Source: Squalus acanthias (Eukaryota). Taken from it: a stretch of DNA of 64,000 bases. The DNA lies in NCBI GenBank assembly GCA_030390025.1, contig CM059431.1, forward strand, positions 101,744,001 through 101,808,000, given 5' to 3'. Positions 45,323-61,370 of the stretch are shown one piece after another (the stretch's first letter is position 1; each line of letters starts with the position of its first letter). The translations under genes and the position numbers were made by a program. The notes beneath the pieces were generated by a model. It did not search any database. It saw only the letters and a list, made by a program, of their open reading frames with translations, and was not told the origin of the DNA.

Positions 45323-45912
45323 CATAAGAACATAAGAAATAGAAGCAGGAGTCGACCATTCGGCCCCTCGAGCCTGCTCCGCCATTCAATAAGATCATGG
45401 CTGATCATCTACCTCATCTCCACTTTCCCGCACTATCCCCATATCCCTTGATTCCCTTAATATTCAAAAATCTATCGATCTCTGTCTTGAATATACTCAA
45501 TGACTGAGCCTCCAAAGCCCTCTGGGGTAGAGAATTCCAAAGATTCACCACCCTCTGAGTGAAGAAATTTCTCCTCATCTCAATCCTAAATGGCCGACCC
45601 CTTATTCTGAGACTATGACCCCTGGTTCTAGACTCCCCAGCCAGGGGAAACATCCTCCCTGCATCTACCCTGTCAAGCCCTGTAAGAATTTTGTATGTTT
45701 CAAGGAGATCACCTCTCATTTTTCTAAACTCGAGAGAATATAGGCCTAGTCTACTCAATCTCTCCTCATAGGACAATCCCCCCATCCCAGGAATCAGTCT
45801 GGTGAACCTTCGTTGCACTCCCTCTATGGCAAGTATATCCTTCCTTAGGTAAGGAGACCAAAACTGTACACAATACTCCAGGTGTGGTCTCACCAAGGCC
45901 CTGTATAATAGC
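45323..45912 (-). mobile_element. CR1 LINE 3' fragment
   Basis: VRPHLEYCVQFWSPY...VQRRFTR open for 160 codons. Confidence 0.9.
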
Positions 45913-47164
45913 AGATCGGGAGTTGGATGGGAATCAATGGCAGATCAGGAGTTGAGTATTTATCCAATTCCCTTTTTGAAAGTTAATATTGAATCTGCTT
46001 CCACCGCCCTTTGAGGCAGCGCATTCCAGATCACAACAACTCGCTGCGTAAATAAAATTCTCCTCACTTTCCAGTAAATTCACCCCATAAATGGAACCAA
46101 AATATTAGCAATCTACTCTATTTTAAAAAAGAAGTCCATCTCCTGTGGCAGTGCACCCAGGGAATCGAGACCAAAAACACTGTCCCCAAGACAAGGAAGG
46201 TTAGAGGGCGGGGAAATAGTTTAACCAAGGCAGGCGCAGGGAGATGAGGCAGATGGAGAGGAGTGTGGGGGTGGGGGGAGAGGAGGGGGGGAGATAACAT
46301 CTTCTGGGTGGGGGGGGGCGCGGCCACCATCTTGTTTCTTGGGGTCGTTCTGTATCCAGTTATTGTCTGGAGATGGGGGGGGGGGTGGGTGGGTGGGATG
46401 AGGGAGAAGGGAGTGGAGAAGAGAGAAAGGGGTAACAGGAGGAGTGGGGAGCACGGGGATGGAAAGAAGGTGGTGGAAGGTGAGGGGAGGAAATGGGTGA
46501 AGAGGCTGAGGAGGGAATAAAGGGAAGGGCCGGGGGGGAGTGATGGAGGGAGGAGAGCAGGGAGGGGATAAGGCGAGGGAGAGAGGTAAAGCAGGCGAGG
46601 AATGGAATGGAGGAGGAGGGGGAACCAGTGAAGGCAAAATTAGGAGAGGAGGAGTGGGAGGAAGGCGAAACAAAGGGAAGGGGAGTCGAAGATGCACGGG
46701 GGAGCTTGCCTCATCAGTGGCGGGGTGTCTGAGTGTAGCGGAGGGGAGTCGGTGGGTTCCTGCTCCCAATTCCTGTCTAGACTCCGGGGCCCGAGCTTGG
46801 GACTCCAACACTCACCGTTCTTGTAATCGGACATCTGTCTCTCTGGCTGCCCACATGCCGTGGTGTCCTGTACTAGATTGCTGGATACACTTCATCAGTA
46901 AGCAATGACATCATTCACCAGTCCTTTCTAACTTCAGTTTTTTTAGCTGGTCGAAGTGACTCTCTCTCTTTATATAAAAGCCTCCCAAGAGGTGTGCACT
47001 GAAATACGTGCACGCCTTAACCCCTCCCTCCTCTCCTCCCTTCTTCACTCCATCGGCCCATCCCGTCCCGTCCCTTCATTCGCTCCTCCCCTCCAGTTGG
47101 CTCCCAGTAGACATTAGTAATCAGTATAGACTCTGCCTCATTCTACCTAATATATTAGAGTAAG

Positions 47165-50120: not shown

Positions 50121-50699
50121 TAAATGATTTTGCTTTCAAAAGCATTCATGTGTGGGTGTCAGATGGGGATGTGAAACGTATTTGTATTTCCCTTGATACG
50201 TCACACATGGATACATCTTCTCCCAGTCTGTAGTAACCGTGCATTCGAAGCTTAATGACTGTTTGATACGATACTGCAAGGTATGGCTCTGCCATCACAC
50301 GTACAGGGTTTTGATTCTGGATTGATGATGGTCAACTTTATTAATGTACAGCAGACTGATAATGTAACGTCATCCAGCTTAGAGTAGGTGGTCCATGCCT
50401 TAATGTCCAGACATGCTGTCCCGTGCAAGTGTCCAACATCAATCCTCCGCAGAGTCAGTTTACAGTGATTTTTTAAAATTTCTCTCTTTACTCTTTAGGG
50501 TAATCAGAGGTAAGATCAACCAGAGCTTTAAACTTTCCTAACTAATTGGTTTTTATTGACATTGAAGTGCAACAGGTTTTACAGCTAGAGGTTGATACAA
50601 CCTTTCAGTCAGAAATGTAACACGAAACTCCGAATGGCCAATTCTTTCTGCTTCGGGAGACTGAGGGGTTAATATTCCATCAACATTCTGCGTGGTGTT

Positions 50700-50877
50700 T
50701 GTCGTAAGAGTGAACTTAAAGTAAGCTTTAATCAACTAAAAAGGTGCTACATACAAAAGAGGTCTTACTCTATGCCTCTCCAGGATCCAACTGATCAGTC
50801 CAGTATTTATCCTGGACTAATCACAGGAAGTGATGCAATAAAGTTCGAGTCACAGGAAGCTGTATTGTGTTACCACA
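50700..50877 (-). repeat. 3' LTR, 178 bp
   Basis: Identical to 54931-55124 except for a 16-bp deletion. Confidence 0.95.
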
Positions 50878-50889
50878 TTCTCCCCCCCC
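50878..50889 (-). other. Polypurine tract
   Basis: - strand ggggggggagaa directly before the 3' LTR. Confidence 0.9.
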
Positions 50890-50895
50890 AAAAGA

Positions 50896-53800
50896 TTAGG
50901 AGGCCGGGATGCTCCCTCCATTTCGTAGCCGCTGGACGAGGGAGAGCCGCACCCGTTTGGGTTCTCGTAGCGGTAGAGGGTCCCTAGCCCGTTTACCCGT
51001 CGCGGGCCGTGGACCAGAGTCCGAGTGATCCAGCCCGCTCTGTGAGGGGTCAGGACGATCCTGACTGTGTACTGGTGCCCGAACGGGTGTCGGGCAGGGC
51101 TGTGGCAGATCCGTTTCCGAGCGTACGGTACGGGGTGGATCGTGGCTGCGCGTGCGAGCCCCGACGGGCTCATAGTCAGTCTGCCCCAGGTCGGCACGCT
51201 GGAGTGAGGTACCAGCCGGCGTCAGATCCAGATCGTGATGAGAGGCACCTGGCGAGCCCAGAGATGTACCTGGTACAATATCATCCCCTGGTGTCCCTCT
51301 ATGTTTTGGCGGGCAGGGAGCCAGATCCCGCAATGACACGGTAGATTCCCGACCGTCAGGATACCGAATATAGGCGTAGGTAGGTTTGACGTCAGTGAGC
51401 TCAACCTCATCTACCAGGGGGTCATTCTTAGACGCCCGGACATATCTTCGGAGTAGCACTGGTCCCGGTGCAGTCAGCCACGACGGGAGAGATATCCCAT
51501 AGGATGAGCGACGCTGAAATCGGAAGAACCGTTCATGAGGCGTCGTATTCATGGCGGTCGAAAGGAGGGACCGTGTGGAGTGTAATGCGTCTGGAAGTAC
51601 TGCTTCCCATTGCTGGTTGGGTAGGCCCCGAGATCTCAAAGCCAGACGTACCGCATTCCAGATGATGGCGTTAAAACGCTCGACTTGCCCATTCCCGACC
51701 GGATGATAAGGCGTTGTTTTGCTGGCAGCAATACCCCGTTCCGAGAGATAGGCCTTGAGTTCTCCTGACATAAAAGAAGGGCCCCGATCCGAATGAACAT
51801 AGGATGCTATGCCACAGAAAGCAAATACCTGCTCAAGGCAGCTGATAACCGTGGTCGTCAGCATATTGGGGCAGGGAAAGGCAAACGGAAAACAGGAATA
51901 CTCATCGACCATGGTCAATAGATAAGTGTTGCGAGTTGAAGAGGGCAACGGCCCCTTAAAATCGATGCTAAGCCGTTGCATTGGCTGGGTCGCATGTATG
52001 AGTATACCACCCGAGGGGCGGAAAAACCGAGGTTTCAATTCCGCACAGACTCTGCAGTCCGAGCACATCTTCTTTACATCCCCGGTAGAGAATGGGAGAT
52101 TTCGGGACCGCACGAAGTGTAGCATGCGAGTAACGCCCGGATGACACAACCCATCATGGATGTCTACGAGCGTAGAGGGTGCCATGGCGGAGCAGAATGC
52201 TCGTGTGAGGGTATCCGGAGCCACATTCTCCTTGCCAGGTCGATAGTGGATGGTGTAACCAAAAGAGGCCAATTCCAGCCGCCAAAGCTGGATTTTATTA
52301 TTTTTAATTTTGGTCCGTTTTCGATTATCGAGCATGAAGGCGACCGATCGCTGGTCCGTGATTAAGGTAAAGTGCTGGCGAGCTAGGAGATGACTCCACT
52401 TCCGTACTGCCTCTATGATGGCTGTAGCTTCTTTCTCGACTGGAGGATAATGTAGCTCGGCCCCTTGAAAAGTCCTGGACAAAAATGCCACCGGACGACC
52501 TTCCTGATTCAGAGTGGCCGAGATCGCCATCTCCGAGGCATCACACTCAACAACAAAAGGAAGACTCTCATCGATGGAGTGAAAAGCCGCTTTCTCCAAC
52601 TGTTTTTTCAGGAGGTTAAAGGCTGCAACAGCCGCTGTGTCTAGTGGGAATGTGCTGGCCTTCAGTAGAGGTTGGATTCGGTCCGAGAAGTTAGGAATCC
52701 ATTTAGCATAGTATGCAAACAGGCCGAGGGCCCGGCGCAAGGAGGCCGGATTCTTAGGTGGCGGGAGTTCTTGGAGTGGGCGAAGCCTTTCAGGGTCAGG
52801 TTTAATGATGCCATTGCCCACACAATAGCCAAGGATGTTGATGGTTGGTTGTGACTCAATGGATTTAGCCGCATTTAATGTCAAATTACGGTGCTGGAGT
52901 GCATCCCAAAATCGTTGGAGATTGGCGTCATGTTCCCGCTGATTGCGACCTGCGACAGTAATATTGTCCAGATAAGGAAACGTATCCTTCAAGTCTTCCT
53001 GTTTGACCAGGTCATCCATTGCTCGCTGGAAGACAGCCACTCCATTAGTGACCCCAAAGGGGAGGCGACGAAATTGATACAGCCGTCCATTGGCTTCAAA
53101 GGCCGTATACTGCTTGTCTGAGACCTTCAAGGGTACCTGATGATAGGCACTTTTCAGATCACATGTTGAGAACACCGTGTACTCAGCCAATTTATTAACC
53201 ATATCATCGATGCGCGGCAATGGGTATGCATCCAAGTCCGTATATTGATTGATGGTCTGTGAATAGTCAATGCACAGCCGTTTCTTGTGAGGTTGTAGAG
53301 GGTTCTTAACAATAACGACCTGGGCGCGCCATGGCGACGAACAAGGCTCGATGATATCCTCTGCTAAAAGCCGAGAAATCTCAGCCGCAATAAAAGACTG
53401 GTCTTCCTGACTGAAATGTCGTGACTTTGTTATAATCGGTTTGCATCGAGGAGGGATACTGGTAAACAGTGAGGGTTCATCCAGTGAAGCTGCTGACAAT
53501 GCACAGAACGGTAATCGAGGTAGTATATTAGAAATAGTGAGTTCAGGTTTGGATCCGCCGAACTCAATGGTGAGCTTCTTATGCTGCTTTTGAAAATCCA
53601 GCCCTAAGATAAGATCACTACATAAGTCCTTGAGCACCAAAAGCCGGGTGGAGGGATACCTGTGACCATTAAGTGTTATTTCAACCATACAAAAGCCAGA
53701 AATTCTGGTATTAAGTGATGACTGAGCCATCGCAATTGCCTGGTCCGATGGGAAAACATGCAGCTTTAACTCTGCAACAATCTGTTCCCTAATGAAACTA

Positions 53801-54852
53801 TCAGTGCTACCGGAGTCAATTAAGGCATCTAAAGTATGTCCATTAATTGATGCTTTTGTAGCTGCATGGAATAGGTTCTGAGGACAAGCAGCTGTAATTG
53901 GTGTCGTTGCACAAAGAGTGGCTGAAACTCTATGTGTGTTTCTTCGAGAGGAAACCCGAGAGGAAGCACGATAGATTTTAGCCGGAACATCTTGATAGGC
54001 CCTTACCGGGGCAGTTCGGTAGGACTTAGCTTGATAAGCCCTCGTAGAGGCTCTTGATAGGCAAACCTTTGCAAAATGACCCTTTTTGTTGCAATGACTG
54101 CAAAACGCATTGCGAGCAGGGCAGAATTTCCGAGGGTGAAACTCATCACCACAAAAGAAGCATTTCTTAGATTGCCAAGAGGCTGCCACAGTGGGGTCAT
54201 CATCCTCTTCATCAGTGAAGTCATCAGATTGATCGTCAGGGATAAAGTCCTCCCTAATAGAGTTCACCTGTGGCCTCTTAAATTGCCTGACTGTAGTTAA
54301 GGCAGCAGACCGAGGTCTGGGCACTGTATAAAGGTCTGCATTTCTTTTTGCCAGATCTAGAGAGCAAGCCATGTCATAAGCTCTCTGAAGCTCAAGTGTC
54401 TTACTTTCCAGTAGACGCTGGCATATAAATGGGGAGGCAAGCCCGCAGATGAAAGCATCACGGATCATTTCTTCACGGTACAGCTCAGCTGAGGCCGCCT
54501 GAAAGTTACAGTCCATACTAAGTCTGCGAAGCTCTTGGAGGAATTTATCAATGGATTCCTCCGGCCCTTGTTGGGCTGTAGCTAGTAGATGTCTGGCATA
54601 GACCTCATTCGGTGTCTTAGTATATAGTCTCTTAAGCGTCCGAATTGCCTCCTCGTAACTGCCCCATTCCTCCACATACTGAAATACATTCGGGGTGACA
54701 CAGTTGATGAGTATCCGCAACTTTGAGTCATCATCAGCCTTGCAATATTCAAGAAAATTGTCAAACGTGCGATACCAGTGTTTCCACACCTTACTGGCTG
54801 CTGGGGTGTTTGGTTCCAAGTCAAGACGCGATGGTTTAAGGATGTTTTCCAT
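50896..54852 (-). CDS. Gag-Pol polyprotein, 1318 aa
   Basis: Two CX2CX4HX4C knuckles (CFFCGDEFHPRKFC, CSHCNKKGHFAKVC), protease LIDSGS, RT (DLKSAYHQ, LPFG, YLDN), RNase H (CDAS, EKE, TDQ, PDTLTR), integrase HHCC + IDF/SDRG/VERFN. Confidence 0.95.
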   Translation of the reverse strand: MENILKPSRLDLEPNTPAASKVWKHWYRTFDNFLEYCKADDDSKLRILINCVTPNVFQYVEEWGSYEEAIRTLKRLYTKTPNEVYARHLLATAQQGPEESIDKFLQELRRLSMDCNFQAASAELYREEMIRDAFICGLASPFICQRLLESKTLELQRAYDMACSLDLAKRNADLYTVPRPRSAALTTVRQFKRPQVNSIREDFIPDDQSDDFTDEEDDDPTVAASWQSKKCFFCGDEFHPRKFCPARNAFCSHCNKKGHFAKVCLSRASTRAYQAKSYRTAPVRAYQDVPAKIYRASSRVSSRRNTHRVSATLCATTPITAACPQNLFHAATKASINGHTLDALIDSGSTDSFIREQIVAELKLHVFPSDQAIAMAQSSLNTRISGFCMVEITLNGHRYPSTRLLVLKDLCSDLILGLDFQKQHKKLTIEFGGSKPELTISNILPRLPFCALSAASLDEPSLFTSIPPRCKPIITKSRHFSQEDQSFIAAEISRLLAEDIIEPCSSPWRAQVVIVKNPLQPHKKRLCIDYSQTINQYTDLDAYPLPRIDDMVNKLAEYTVFSTCDLKSAYHQVPLKVSDKQYTAFEANGRLYQFRRLPFGVTNGVAVFQRAMDDLVKQEDLKDTFPYLDNITVAGRNQREHDANLQRFWDALQHRNLTLNAAKSIESQPTINILGYCVGNGIIKPDPERLRPLQELPPPKNPASLRRALGLFAYYAKWIPNFSDRIQPLLKASTFPLDTAAVAAFNLLKKQLEKAAFHSIDESLPFVVECDASEMAISATLNQEGRPVAFLSRTFQGAELHYPPVEKEATAIIEAVRKWSHLLARQHFTLITDQRSVAFMLDNRKRTKIKNNKIQLWRLELASFGYTIHYRPGKENVAPDTLTRAFCSAMAPSTLVDIHDGLCHPGVTRMLHFVRSRNLPFSTGDVKKMCSDCRVCAELKPRFFRPSGGILIHATQPMQRLSIDFKGPLPSSTRNTYLLTMVDEYSCFPFAFPCPNMLTTTVISCLEQVFAFCGIASYVHSDRGPSFMSGELKAYLSERGIAASKTTPYHPVGNGQVERFNAIIWNAVRLALRSRGLPNQQWEAVLPDALHSTRSLLSTAMNTTPHERFFRFQRRSSYGISLPSWLTAPGPVLLRRYVRASKNDPLVDEVELTDVKPTYAYIRYPDGRESTVSLRDLAPCPPKHRGTPGDDIVPGTSLGSPGASHHDLDLTPAGTSLQRADLGQTDYEPVGARTRSHDPPRTVRSETDLPQPCPTPVRAPVHSQDRPDPSQSGLDHSDSGPRPATGKRARDPLPLREPKRVRLSLVQRLRNGGSIPAS

Positions 54853-54930
54853 GATGGGTGATTCCCTGGATCCTTAGTTCCGAGTTCGTCCAAAAAGTTT
54901 GAGTGCGAAGTTTTCCAAAGTTGATTAAAT

Positions 54931-55124
54931 TGTCGTAAGAATGAGCCTTATGCGTGGTGAACTTAAAGTAAGCTTTAATCAACTAAAAAGGTGCTACATA
55001 CAAAAGAGGTCTTACTCTATGCCTCTCCAGGATCCAACTGATCAGTCCAGTATTTATCCTGGACTAATCACAGGAAGTGATGCAATAAAGTTCGAGTCAC
55101 AGGAAGCTGTATTGTGTTACCACA
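54931..55124 (-). repeat. 5' LTR, 194 bp
   Basis: - strand TGTGGTAAC...TTACGACA with GATAAATA (55051-55058) and ATTAAA (54974-54979). Confidence 0.95.
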
Positions 55125-55149
55125 GTGTTCATCTGGTCTGTCTCTGGAA

Positions 55150-55690: not shown

Positions 55691-56124
55691 TGGCTGCCTC
55701 ACTTGTTCCCTCTGAGCAGAGGGCGTTGGGAAATTTGCAAGAAGGAATATTGGAGGATGAATTGACCCAGACCTTAAATGCTACCAGATTAATGGTGTCG
55801 TTGGTGGGAGGCCTGAGGGTTGATTAAAGGTCCAGCTTCTTGGCCAAAGAAATGAGTCATGTGAACTTTATCCAGGAGGTTTAAAGAAAGAGGCCATTTT
55901 ATAAAGGCTTGTGTTTCCGAGAACTGTTTGATCGGTGACAGTGGACTGTAAAAATAACTAGACTTGGTATTTCCGATGCACCTCAGCCCTCCTTGCCATT
56001 ATTTACAGCCCCTGTATTCAGGCTCCTCGAGACCTCATCTGTCTCAGGAGCTTTGTAACTCTGAGATAATGTTAAGAGAAATTCATTAAAATGTATACTT
56101 GAAAATCTGGGTTGAAGAGTGCTT

Positions 56125-57058
56125 ATAGGAACAGGAGGAGACCATTCAGCCCCTCGAGCCTGTTCCGCCATTCGATGAGATCATGGCTGATCTGCGACCT
56201 AACTCCATATACCCGCCTTTGCCCCGTATCCCTAAACCTAGAAACATAGAAGATAGGAGCAGGAATAGGCCATTCGGCCCCTCTAGCCTGCTCCGCCATT
56301 CAATGCAATCATGGCTGATCATCCAAATTCAGAACCCTGTCCCTGCTTTCCCCCCATATCCCTTGATCCCTTTAGCCTTAAGAAATATATCCAACTCCTT
56401 CTTGAATATATTTAATGCATTGGCCTCTACTGCCTTCTGTGGTAGAGAATTCCACAGGTTCACCACTCTCTGGGTGAAGAAATTCCTCCTAATTTCTGTC
56501 CTAAATGGCTTACCCCTTATCCTTAGACTGTGACCCCTGGTTCTGGACTCCCCGACCATCGGGAACATCCTTCCTGCATCTAGTCTGTCCAGTCCTGTCA
56601 GAATTTTATAAGTTTCAATGAGATACCCTCTAATTCTTCTAAACTCCAGTGAGTATAAGCCCAATCGACCCAATCTCTCCTCATACATCATTCCTGCCAT
56701 CCCAGGTATCAGCCTGGTGAATCTTCGCTGAACTCCTTCCATGGCAAGAACATCCTTCCTCAGATAAGGAGAACCTCCTTCCTCAGATAACACCTTTGGT
56801 TAACAGAAATCTATCAATCTCAGATTTAAAATTAACAATTGATCTAGCATCAACTGGCGTTTGCAGCAGAGAGTTCTAAACTTCTACCACCCTTTGTGTG
56901 TAGAAGTGTTTCCTAACTTCACTCCTGAAAGTTCTGGCTCTAATTTTTAGACTATGCCCCCTAGTCCTAGAATCCCCAACCAGCGGAAATAGTTTCTCTC
57001 TATCTACCCTATCTGTTCCCCTTAATATCCTGAAAACTTCGATCAGATCACCCCTTAA
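56125..57058 (-). mobile_element. CR1 fragment with a younger nested CR1 (about 56240-56772)
   Basis: SPYLRKDVLAMEGVQRRFTR ORF inside a second CR1 tail. Confidence 0.85.
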
Positions 57059-57613
57059 AGTCCGCTCTTAAAATCAACTTGCCCAATAAATCTTTTATCT
57101 GTTGTATTTCGAGTCTATAGAGGATAAATTAAAAGTTGCCAGTGATCCTAGAATGCAGCCTGGTCTCCTTGTGAATATGCGAAGAAAAGTGAGAAAACAA
57201 ATGATATAGCTGCTGAAAGGTGCCACTTAAACTTTCCCTGAATCGTTAGCTGTGGGTTTGATTCCGAGCGACCGTTGAATCTTTGCAGCGGAGAGCCGAC
57301 CGTATTTGGCCGTTCCTGACCATCCTATTGTGCGACAAATCTGGCTGCTTGGTTCCTCTCCAATTCAACTCGTTGAATCTTTCCAGTAGACGCTCTCCTG
57401 CCTGTGTTGTCAGTTCAGTGGTCCCCAGGAGGCATCGTGTTGGGAATAACCGCAGTGCACAAGTTCATGCCAATTAGTTGCAAGTCCCAAAGGGAATACA
57501 GTGAATTCTGAGGAAAATTGGATGTCAAGTCGGTGTGATTTTACAAGAGTAGAACTGTCTTTTCTTTTATTAAATTTGACAGAATAACATGAAACTACTT
57601 GTTTGTTTTGTAG

Positions 57614-57680: not shown

Positions 57681-58416
57681 GTGAGTGTATATGAGCACTG
57701 AAACCTTGCTGATGTATCTTACAGTAACCCTACAGCGCCACAGGAGGCCATTTGGCCCATCATGCCTGTGCCGGCTCTTTGAACGAGCTGTCCAATTAGT
57801 CCCACTCCCCCCTGCTCTTTCCCCGTAGCCCCGTAATTTTTCCTTTTGAAGTATTTATCCAATTCCCCTTTTGAAAGTTACTATTGAATCTGTTTCCACC
57901 GCCCTTTCAGGCAGCGCATTCCAGACTTAGAAATATATCGGCCGATCCTTCATCGTCGCTGGGTCAAAATCCTGGAACTCCCTCCCTAACAGCACTGTGG
58001 GAGCACCTTCACCACACGGACTGCAGCGGTTCAAGAAGGCGGCTCACCACCACCTTCTCGAGGGCAATTAGGGATGGGCAATAAATGCCGGCCTTGCCAG
58101 CGACGCCCACATCCCATAAACGAATAAAATAAAGATCACAACAACTCGCTGCGTTTAACAAAAAAATTCTCCTCATCTCCCCTCTGGTTCTTTTAATAAA
58201 ACAAAATTGTTTAACCATTATATGTAGAGAATTATAGTACATTTATTGTTGGTGGCAATTTGTTTTTTCCTGTCTACAATTCTGTTTAACCAATTTAATT
58301 GTGAAAACGTAAACACCGGCACGGACCAGTTGGGCCGAATGGCCTGATTCTGTGCTGTAAATACAATGTAATTCTGTGTAATACTGCGCTGATTATTACA
58401 TTTCCCTTCTCCACAG

Positions 58417-61009: not shown

Positions 61010-61370
61010 CACAGAATGATACAGCACAGAAGGAGGCCTTTCGGCCCATTGTGCCTGTGCTGGCTCTTTGAAAGAGCTCTCCAATTAATCCCACTCCCCC
61101 TTGCTCTTTCCCCGTAGCCCTGTAAACTTTTCCTTTTCAAGTATTTATCCAATTCCCTGTTGAAAGTTACTATTGAATCTGCTTCCACCGCCCTTTCAAG
61201 CAGCGCGTTCCGGATCACAACAACTCGCTGCGTAAAAAACAAAAACTACTCCTCATCTCCCCCTCTGGTTCTTTTGCCAATTACCTTAAATCTGTGTCCT
61301 CTGGTTACCGACCCTCCAGCCACTGGAAACGGCTTGTCCCGATCCACTCTATCAAAACCCCTTCATAATT
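61010..61370 (-). mobile_element. CR1 LINE 3' fragment
   Basis: FFTQRVV..RNAL.ERAVEA remnant. Confidence 0.8.

Follow-up and report, generated by a model that had tools for sequence, protein, structure and literature searches.

The 64,000-nt stretch of the Squalus acanthias genome analyzed here (hereafter the window; assembly GCA_030390025.1, contig CM059431.1, positions 101,744,001 to 101,808,000 of the forward strand) carries on its minus strand a complete long terminal repeat (LTR) retrotransposon of Ty3/gypsy type, whose reverse transcriptase (RT) has YLDN at the position of the YxDD box. Very probably this is a natural, lineage-wide YxDN RT, in which Asn is the normal residue both of this intact, young, and abundant family and of most of the surrounding metazoan-wide lineage, and which appears to be functional. 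Asn is fixed in the family and conserved over families and phyla, and the elements that bear it carry signs of real, recent retrotransposition through integrase.

Asn at the second Asp position of motif C

Motif C of the window copy is encoded by TATCTGGACAAT, read as TAT CTG GAC AAT on the minus strand from window position 52974 to 52963, and corresponds to YLDN at residues 627-630 of a 1318-aa open frame (54852..50896) that comprises gag, protease (PR), RT, RNase H, and integrase (IN). By HMMER, FPYLDNITVAG was aligned with NVYLDDILIFS of the Ty3 RT (4ol8_A, E 1.3e-38), and Asn630 is thus the second Asp position of motif C. The same stretch was matched to YVDD in a caulimovirus RT (8r0s_A) as well. 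The top solved-structure matches of the RT were the Ty3 entries 4ol8_A and 7q5b_A (E 9.6e-38). An earlier reading made from the letters alone (the sequence-only reading) had reported YLDN at 52963..52974, and the minus-strand sequence confirmed it.

That reading had also described the other catalytic motifs as intact. We analyzed an alignment of 50 family members and found each of the named residues present and invariant in all 50: D346 of the protease; D565 of RT motif A and D629, the first Asp of motif C; D771, E808, D833, and D880 of RNase H; H899, H904, C933, and C936 of the integrase zinc site; and D964, D1022, and E1058 of the integrase D,D,E triad. The same holds for the Gag knuckles (C231, C234, H239, C244, C251, C254, H259, and C264). 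Pfam domains lie along the frame in the order aspartic protease, RVT_1, RT_RNaseH, Integrase_H2C2 (residues 894-942), and rve; residues of the other four are given in Table 1. With TG...CA LTRs and a 5-bp target-site duplication (TSD), PR-RT-RNaseH-IN order, and an RT nearest that of Ty3, the element has the features of Ty3/gypsy (Metaviridae) and departs from them solely in the YxDD box.

Asn is fixed in a young and abundant family

An exact search of the genome for the 34-nt context of the motif returned 2,159 occurrences with an Asn codon (AAY; 1,058 forward and 1,101 reverse) and none with an Asp codon (GAY); a reversed control pattern also gave none. With a 701-nt RT probe, 709 candidates were obtained in the 3.7-Gb assembly, and the 40 that were scored were 99-100% identical. 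The same 12 nt as in the window were present in 30 of 30 fetched RT loci. We inspected 21 full-length places, namely the window copy and 20 others, and located both ends in 20 of them; the motif was encoded with the same codon in all 21.

Perfect 5-bp TSDs, each a different sequence, flanked all 20 copies with both ends. The LTRs of a copy differed by no substitution in 12 of these 20 and by 1-4 substitutions in the other eight. Nine of the 21 copies retained an open frame of 1312 aa or more, and the ratio of nonsynonymous to synonymous differences per site (pN/pS) was below 1 in 33 of the 36 pairs among these nine (range 0.18-1.39), all three exceptions involving the copy L120. TSDs, LTR identity, and pN/pS point to numerous insertions made independently and recently by integrase, from lineages under protein-level selection.

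The sequence-only reading had left two explanations for YLDN, a private inactivating G>A in one copy of a family whose norm is YLDD, or a family-wide natural variant, with a lean toward the latter. In favor of the former, GAT and AAT differ by a single transition, and other gypsy lineages as a rule have YxDD, with Asp in all 118 distant stretches that cover the site (see below). The private mutation is nevertheless refuted by the exact-context count of 2,159 Asn against 0 Asp, and both the Asn in 21 of 21 copies and the Asn in 97 of the best 120 homologues in other animals also speak against it, leaving it a probability close to nil. The variant is family-wide, as the exact contexts, the 30 RT loci, and the 21 copies show.

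Asn and Asp alternate across an animal-wide lineage

We analyzed motif C in the best 120 of 1,213 homologues (length 724-2307 aa; RT cores aligned at 55-89% identity). Asn was found in 97 (YLDN 85, YVDN 4, YIDN 3, YMDN 3, and FLDN 2) and Asp in 23 (YLDD 22 and YIDD 1), and no other residue occurred. Named hosts of N-type homologues include cnidarians (Xenia and Actinostola), a mollusc (Mytilus), crustaceans (Macrobrachium, Palaemon, Caligus, and Oratosquilla), and cartilaginous fishes (Scyliorhinus and Narcine); a homologue from Trichuris has Asp at the site. An index-free search of cluster representatives provided a fairer sample, in which matched stretches were counted by their identity to the query and one protein lacked coverage of the motif. 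At 60% identity or more, six stretches had Asn and one had Asp; between 50 and 60%, 23 had Asn and 16 had Asp, with one gapped; between 40 and 50%, 15 had Asn, 28 had Asp, and one had Tyr; and below 40%, where other gypsy lineages lie, 118 had Asp and none had Asn, with one gapped.

DNA loci of relatives were fetched by means of RNase H and integrase peptide patterns, and hence were sampled independently of motif C. The fourth codon of the motif, covered in 58 of 80 loci (59 matched stretches), was AAT in 25, AAC in 14, GAC in 10, GAT in 9, and AAG in 1; some of the loci are near-duplicates, so these counts are not all independent. Use of both AAT and AAC across families, which the sequence-only reading had proposed as a sign of selection, was thus observed. 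The site accepts Asn or Asp alone, rare degenerate copies aside, and both Asn codons are used. Several of the N-type relatives are whole and young: in L035 and L039 the frame is about 1190 aa long and the LTRs are 100% identical, and in L037, L033, L059, and L060 the frame is 1213-1238 aa long, with LTR identities of 99.0-99.6%.

The history of the site was traced on FastTree trees from which the motif columns had been removed. On a 121-row RT tree, the N/D state changed eight times, and seven of these changes were forced by well-supported branches; shuffled labels required 21 changes on average, and none of 500 shuffles gave a number as low as eight. A larger tree of 205 rows, consisting of the 121 rows, 70 in-lineage representatives, and 14 distant outgroup RTs as the root, contained 13 changes. 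Its successive basal side branches had Asp (5, 4, 3 of 4, 10, and 2 rows), Asn arose at a 166-row node (127 N and 38 D), and Asp reappeared several times inside that node. The trees suggest, in approximate terms, that Asp changed to Asn once, long ago, and that the site then switched repeatedly in both directions.

Copying in trans and RNA editing as alternatives

The YxDN enzymes could be dead or crippled, and their families copied in trans by the YxDD RT of another element. YxDD gypsy lineages do exist in animal genomes, and the engineered Ty1 mutant D211N, which has the same substitution at the same position, fails to support transposition. As the sequence-only reading had stated, and in agreement with the Ty1 study (PMC2148107), this mutant polymerizes in vitro but has lost transposition. 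According to the same study, its kpol is 223-fold lower, Mn2+ is preferred, and transposition is partially rescued by mutations in RNase H. A dead site, however, should drift, whereas among the best 120 homologues the site holds Asn or Asp alone and the Asn codon turns over synonymously. Constraint, as measured by pN/pS, extends over the entire frame. In addition, a closer D-type family was not found in this genome: the top matches of the nearest D-type protein (P0017) are just 64-69% identical, many with 1315-aa open frames, and in the four whose motif region was fetched, the three readable ones all encode YLDN (TAT TTA GAC AAT twice and TAT CTG GAT AAT once), and no motif-bearing open frame was seen in the fourth. 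The same genome houses at least two additional related YLDN families (L131-L133 among the loci), with frames of about 1315 aa and many stop-free copies. Finally, the lineage persists over phyla, which is hardly expected of a parasite dependent on unrelated helpers. We regard copying in trans as improbable.

Asn-to-Asp recoding lies within reach of adenosine-to-inosine (A-to-I) editing. If the first A of AAY were edited in the mRNA, the translated enzyme would have YxDD, and the many N-to-D switches in the trees could be edited templates fixed via reverse transcription. Because one RNA serves as both message and template, however, many copies with G would be expected, and none was found among the 2,159 exact contexts. 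AAT and AAC also both persist over long times. Contigs of four public runs, with four coded organism labels, matched the RT stretch of window 52600-53400 at 99% identity or more; each run had one covering contig with 3-6 differences, none of which lay at 52963-52974. The absence of a codon difference speaks against editing only so far as contigs, which hide rare variants and whose RNA status is a guess, allow: they can reveal neither transcription nor rare edited reads, and just one of the 17 matching runs was recorded as RNA, covering little of the stretch. The contig matches also place this family, or nearly identical ones, in several data sets. Taken together, we judge editing to be very improbable as the source of a YxDD enzyme.

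A proposed catalytic site with two carboxylates and one amide

From the genomic record, the YxDN enzyme itself would be the working polymerase. In such an enzyme, the two metal-bridging carboxylates would be supplied by Asp565 of motif A and Asp629 of motif C, and the third position would still be occupied by the side chain of Asn630, which is isosteric with Asp, through either its carbonyl oxygen or a hydrogen bond. The background of the lineage would make Asp and Asn near-interchangeable at this position, as is suggested by the many state switches, for which no accompanying change was detected in RT or RNase H. By analogy with Ty1 D211N, the natural N enzyme may be slower, prefer Mn2+, or handle pyrophosphate differently.

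In the search for partner residues, the alignment columns of residues 480-760, and then of residues 480-900, were ranked by how strongly they were associated with Asn or Asp at the site. The 8 best columns of the first range and the 15 best of the second were tested in seven phylogenetically independent pairs, and none reached significance, so that in this low-powered test a partner is neither demonstrated nor excluded. Thr at +2 (T632) was considered as an obligate partner and rejected: it is typical of the N-containing crown, yet P0061, P0045, and P0063 have Asn without Thr. More speculatively, a metazoan-wide gypsy lineage may possess a two-carboxylate, one-amide RT that differs in rate, in Mg2+/Mn2+ use, and in pyrophosphate release, in a background that spares the third carboxylate, possibly through self-primed initiation of the minus strand or Thr at +2; we put this forward tentatively, as a possibility that is rather unlikely to hold in full.

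Several points weigh against a functional, lineage-wide YxDN RT. Polymerase activity is something we infer from genomic marks of transposition. Since the same substitution in Ty1 abolishes transposition, a permissive context would be needed in the lineage, and none of the columns over residues 480-900 of RT and RNase H was found to follow the switches between Asn and Asp, in a test on seven independent pairs and hence of low power. The ratio of 97 to 23 may be biased toward Asn, as the candidates were selected for sharing words with a query of the N type, and the index-free sample puts the lineage at about half Asn and half Asp. Many of the homologues come from metagenome assemblies and not from named hosts. 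In the trees, several backbone nodes are weakly supported, so that the number and direction of the changes are approximate.

Structure of the element and its priming signature

The features of the window copy are listed in Table 1.

Table 1. Features of the retrotransposon copy in the window, with positions in the 64,000-nt stretch
Feature	Position	Strand	Details	Basis
Complete LTR retrotransposon copy	50700..55124	-	4,425 bp, Ty3/gypsy-type	LTR pair and ends from 20 other copies
5' LTR	54931..55124	-	194 nt, TG...CA ends	Comparison of copies
3' LTR	50700..50877	-	178 nt; equals the 5' LTR minus a 16-nt deletion	Comparison of copies
Target-site duplication, upstream	55125..55129	-	AACAC	
Target-site duplication, downstream	50695..50699	-	AACAC	
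gag-pol open frame	50896..54852	-	Single frame, 1318 aa (P0001)	Pfam domains
Gag CCHC zinc knuckles	54061..54162	-	Two knuckles, residues 231-264	
Aspartic protease domain	53593..53856	-	Residues 333-420; Asp346 of DSG at 53815-53817	Pfam
Reverse transcriptase domain	52825..53286	-	Residues 523-676; motif A Asp565 at 53158-53160	Pfam, HMMER
RT motif C	52963..52974	-	YLDN; Asp629 at 52966-52968, Asn630 (AAT) at 52963-52965	
RNase H domain	52261..52569	-	Residues 762-864	Pfam
Integrase core	51700..51990	-	Residues 955-1051; holds D964 and D1022; E1058 lies beyond, at 51679-51681	
Polypurine tract	50878..50889	-	GGGGGGGGAGAA; adjoins the 3' LTR	
Primer-binding-like site	54919..54929	-	TTTAATCAACT; one base past the 5' LTR	
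Complement within the LTR	54974..54984	-	AGTTGATTAAA; exact reverse complement of TTTAATCAACT, located 54 nt before the end of the LTR	

The LTR length of 194 nt was obtained by comparison with the 20 other copies and replaces the 168 nt given by a repeat finder. The sequence-only reading had described the LTRs of the window copy as free of substitutions. This holds over the shared 178 nt, where there are none, and a 16-nt deletion in the 3' LTR has to be added to the description; the 16 nt are present in the 5' LTR and in all 20 other copies. Diverged interspersed repeat families (61-91% identity) flank the element at window 45329-46055, 56115-57075, 57731-57950, and 61020-61239.

A subfamily of nine of the 20 copies with both ends (L113, L116, L117, L119, L121, L123, L125, L128, and L129) has an asymmetric LTR structure. 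About 71 nt of the LTR start are duplicated directly before the 3' LTR, giving it a length of 265-267 nt, compared with 193-195 nt at the 5' end, and the tract ahead of the 3' LTR is shorter (GGAGGGAGAA). Because each of these copies has a perfect 5-bp TSD, the asymmetric structure was inherited through transposition.

The window copy lacks a primer site of the tRNA type (TGG). The 11-nt site that begins one base past its 5' LTR (54919-54929) is the exact reverse complement of an 11-nt segment within the LTR (54974-54984), both read on the minus strand, an arrangement that looks like self-priming of the Tf1 type. The same self-complementary arrangement was detected in 14 of 24 sources with an LTR pair (the window and 23 loci of relatives), the signature loci being L033, L034, L036, L037, L055, L059, L060, L064, L078, L089, L094, L095, L103, and L105. 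The complement is 10-17 nt long and begins 43-70 nt before the detected LTR end, and 0-2 of 200 shuffles gave one as long. As the signature sequences differ between loci, the pairing co-varies. L078, which is of the YLDD type and is the sole D-type element scored, also carries the signature, indicating that it is not confined to N-type elements. The sequence-only reading had suggested that YLDN might be linked to the unusual priming; this suggestion gained no support, the evidence from L078 being a single case.

Relation to known elements and polymerases

Ty3 of Saccharomyces cerevisiae (4OL8), which has the nearest solved RT, resembles the element in domain order, TG...CA LTR type, and 5-bp duplication, and differs from it in having YLDD. 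Ty3 is primed by a tRNA, whereas the element described here has a self-complementary site. With self-primers of the Tf1 type, it shares the lack of a tRNA site and the 11-nt LTR complement, but no chromodomain was found in it by Pfam, and its hosts are animals instead of fungi; published self-priming LTR elements are listed in the accessible part of a survey (PMC6934838).

Among described gypsy groups, Mag C / SURL is compared here by description only. According to the text available to us, its hosts are metazoans, including vertebrates, and its LTRs are short (training length 174) with the ends TGTNATRT ... AYANAACA (PMC3601003). Host range and short LTRs fit (194 nt here; 85-255 nt for the detected repeats of relatives), and the LTR ends TGTGGTAA ... 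TTACGACA match the two end motifs at six of eight positions each. Troyka was considered and set aside, since the portion of its description at hand gives CG...CG termini and a 3-bp TSD (PMC12440569), in contrast to TG...CA and 5 bp here.

A natural Asn at this position of RT has been described before, in another family. In nematode belpaoviruses (BEL/Pao: Cer13 and Atlas virus), YVDN is a distinguishing feature of several intact elements whose LTRs are identical, as reported in the accessible part of the Atlas virus paper (PMC9094657). The family is a different one, however, and in the lineage described here Asn and Asp toggle within the lineage. Membership of the element in Belpaoviridae was rejected: Pfam gave only families of gypsy/retroviral type (Asp_protease_2, RVP_2, RT_RNaseH, Integrase_H2C2, and rve) and none of BEL/Pao type. 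Because of these gypsy-type domains and the Ty3-nearest RT, the Asn of the gypsy lineage arose separately from the YVDN of BEL/Pao.

Unlike the engineered Ty1 D211N, the Asn described here is natural and occurs in families with thousands of young copies. The Ty1 suppressors lie in RNase H, whereas here no RNase H column co-varies in a test of low power. A further right-hand polymerase with an Asp-Asn motif C is the L protein of Mononegavirales, whose conserved GDNQ has, in the available passages of the structural report, the Asp and Asn positioned at the metal site, and in which mutations of the Asn abolish activity (PMC4634563). This enzyme is an RNA-dependent RNA polymerase and not related by family, and in the gypsy lineage Asn and Asp alternate.

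A text search of the literature, with figures, alignments, and most subscription journals outside its scope, returned no description of YxDN in gypsy-type elements. Within the same search, YLDN, YVDN, YIDN, or YMDN in retrotransposons was mentioned only in the Atlas virus paper and its preprint, and the accessible text of Llorens 2009 (PMC2774666) contains no passage on the motif.

Implications

We consider the finding to be of moderate interest, with a precedent in another family and a useful natural N/D series. YxDD is regarded as the signature of RTs, and copies with YxDN tend to be scored as dead by annotation pipelines and by readers. The Asn form must not be read as inactivation, as it belongs to one of the most prolific young families in a 3.7-Gb vertebrate genome, with relatives in at least four animal phyla. 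If the lineage does rely on a two-carboxylate, one-amide RT, the repeated N/D switches would supply ready matched pairs with which the role of the third Asp of RTs could be explored. Sister elements that differ at the site, such as P0075 (N) and P0062 (D), complement the experiments on Ty1 D211N with natural variants and could reveal the contribution of the third carboxylate and the conditions under which it can be spared.

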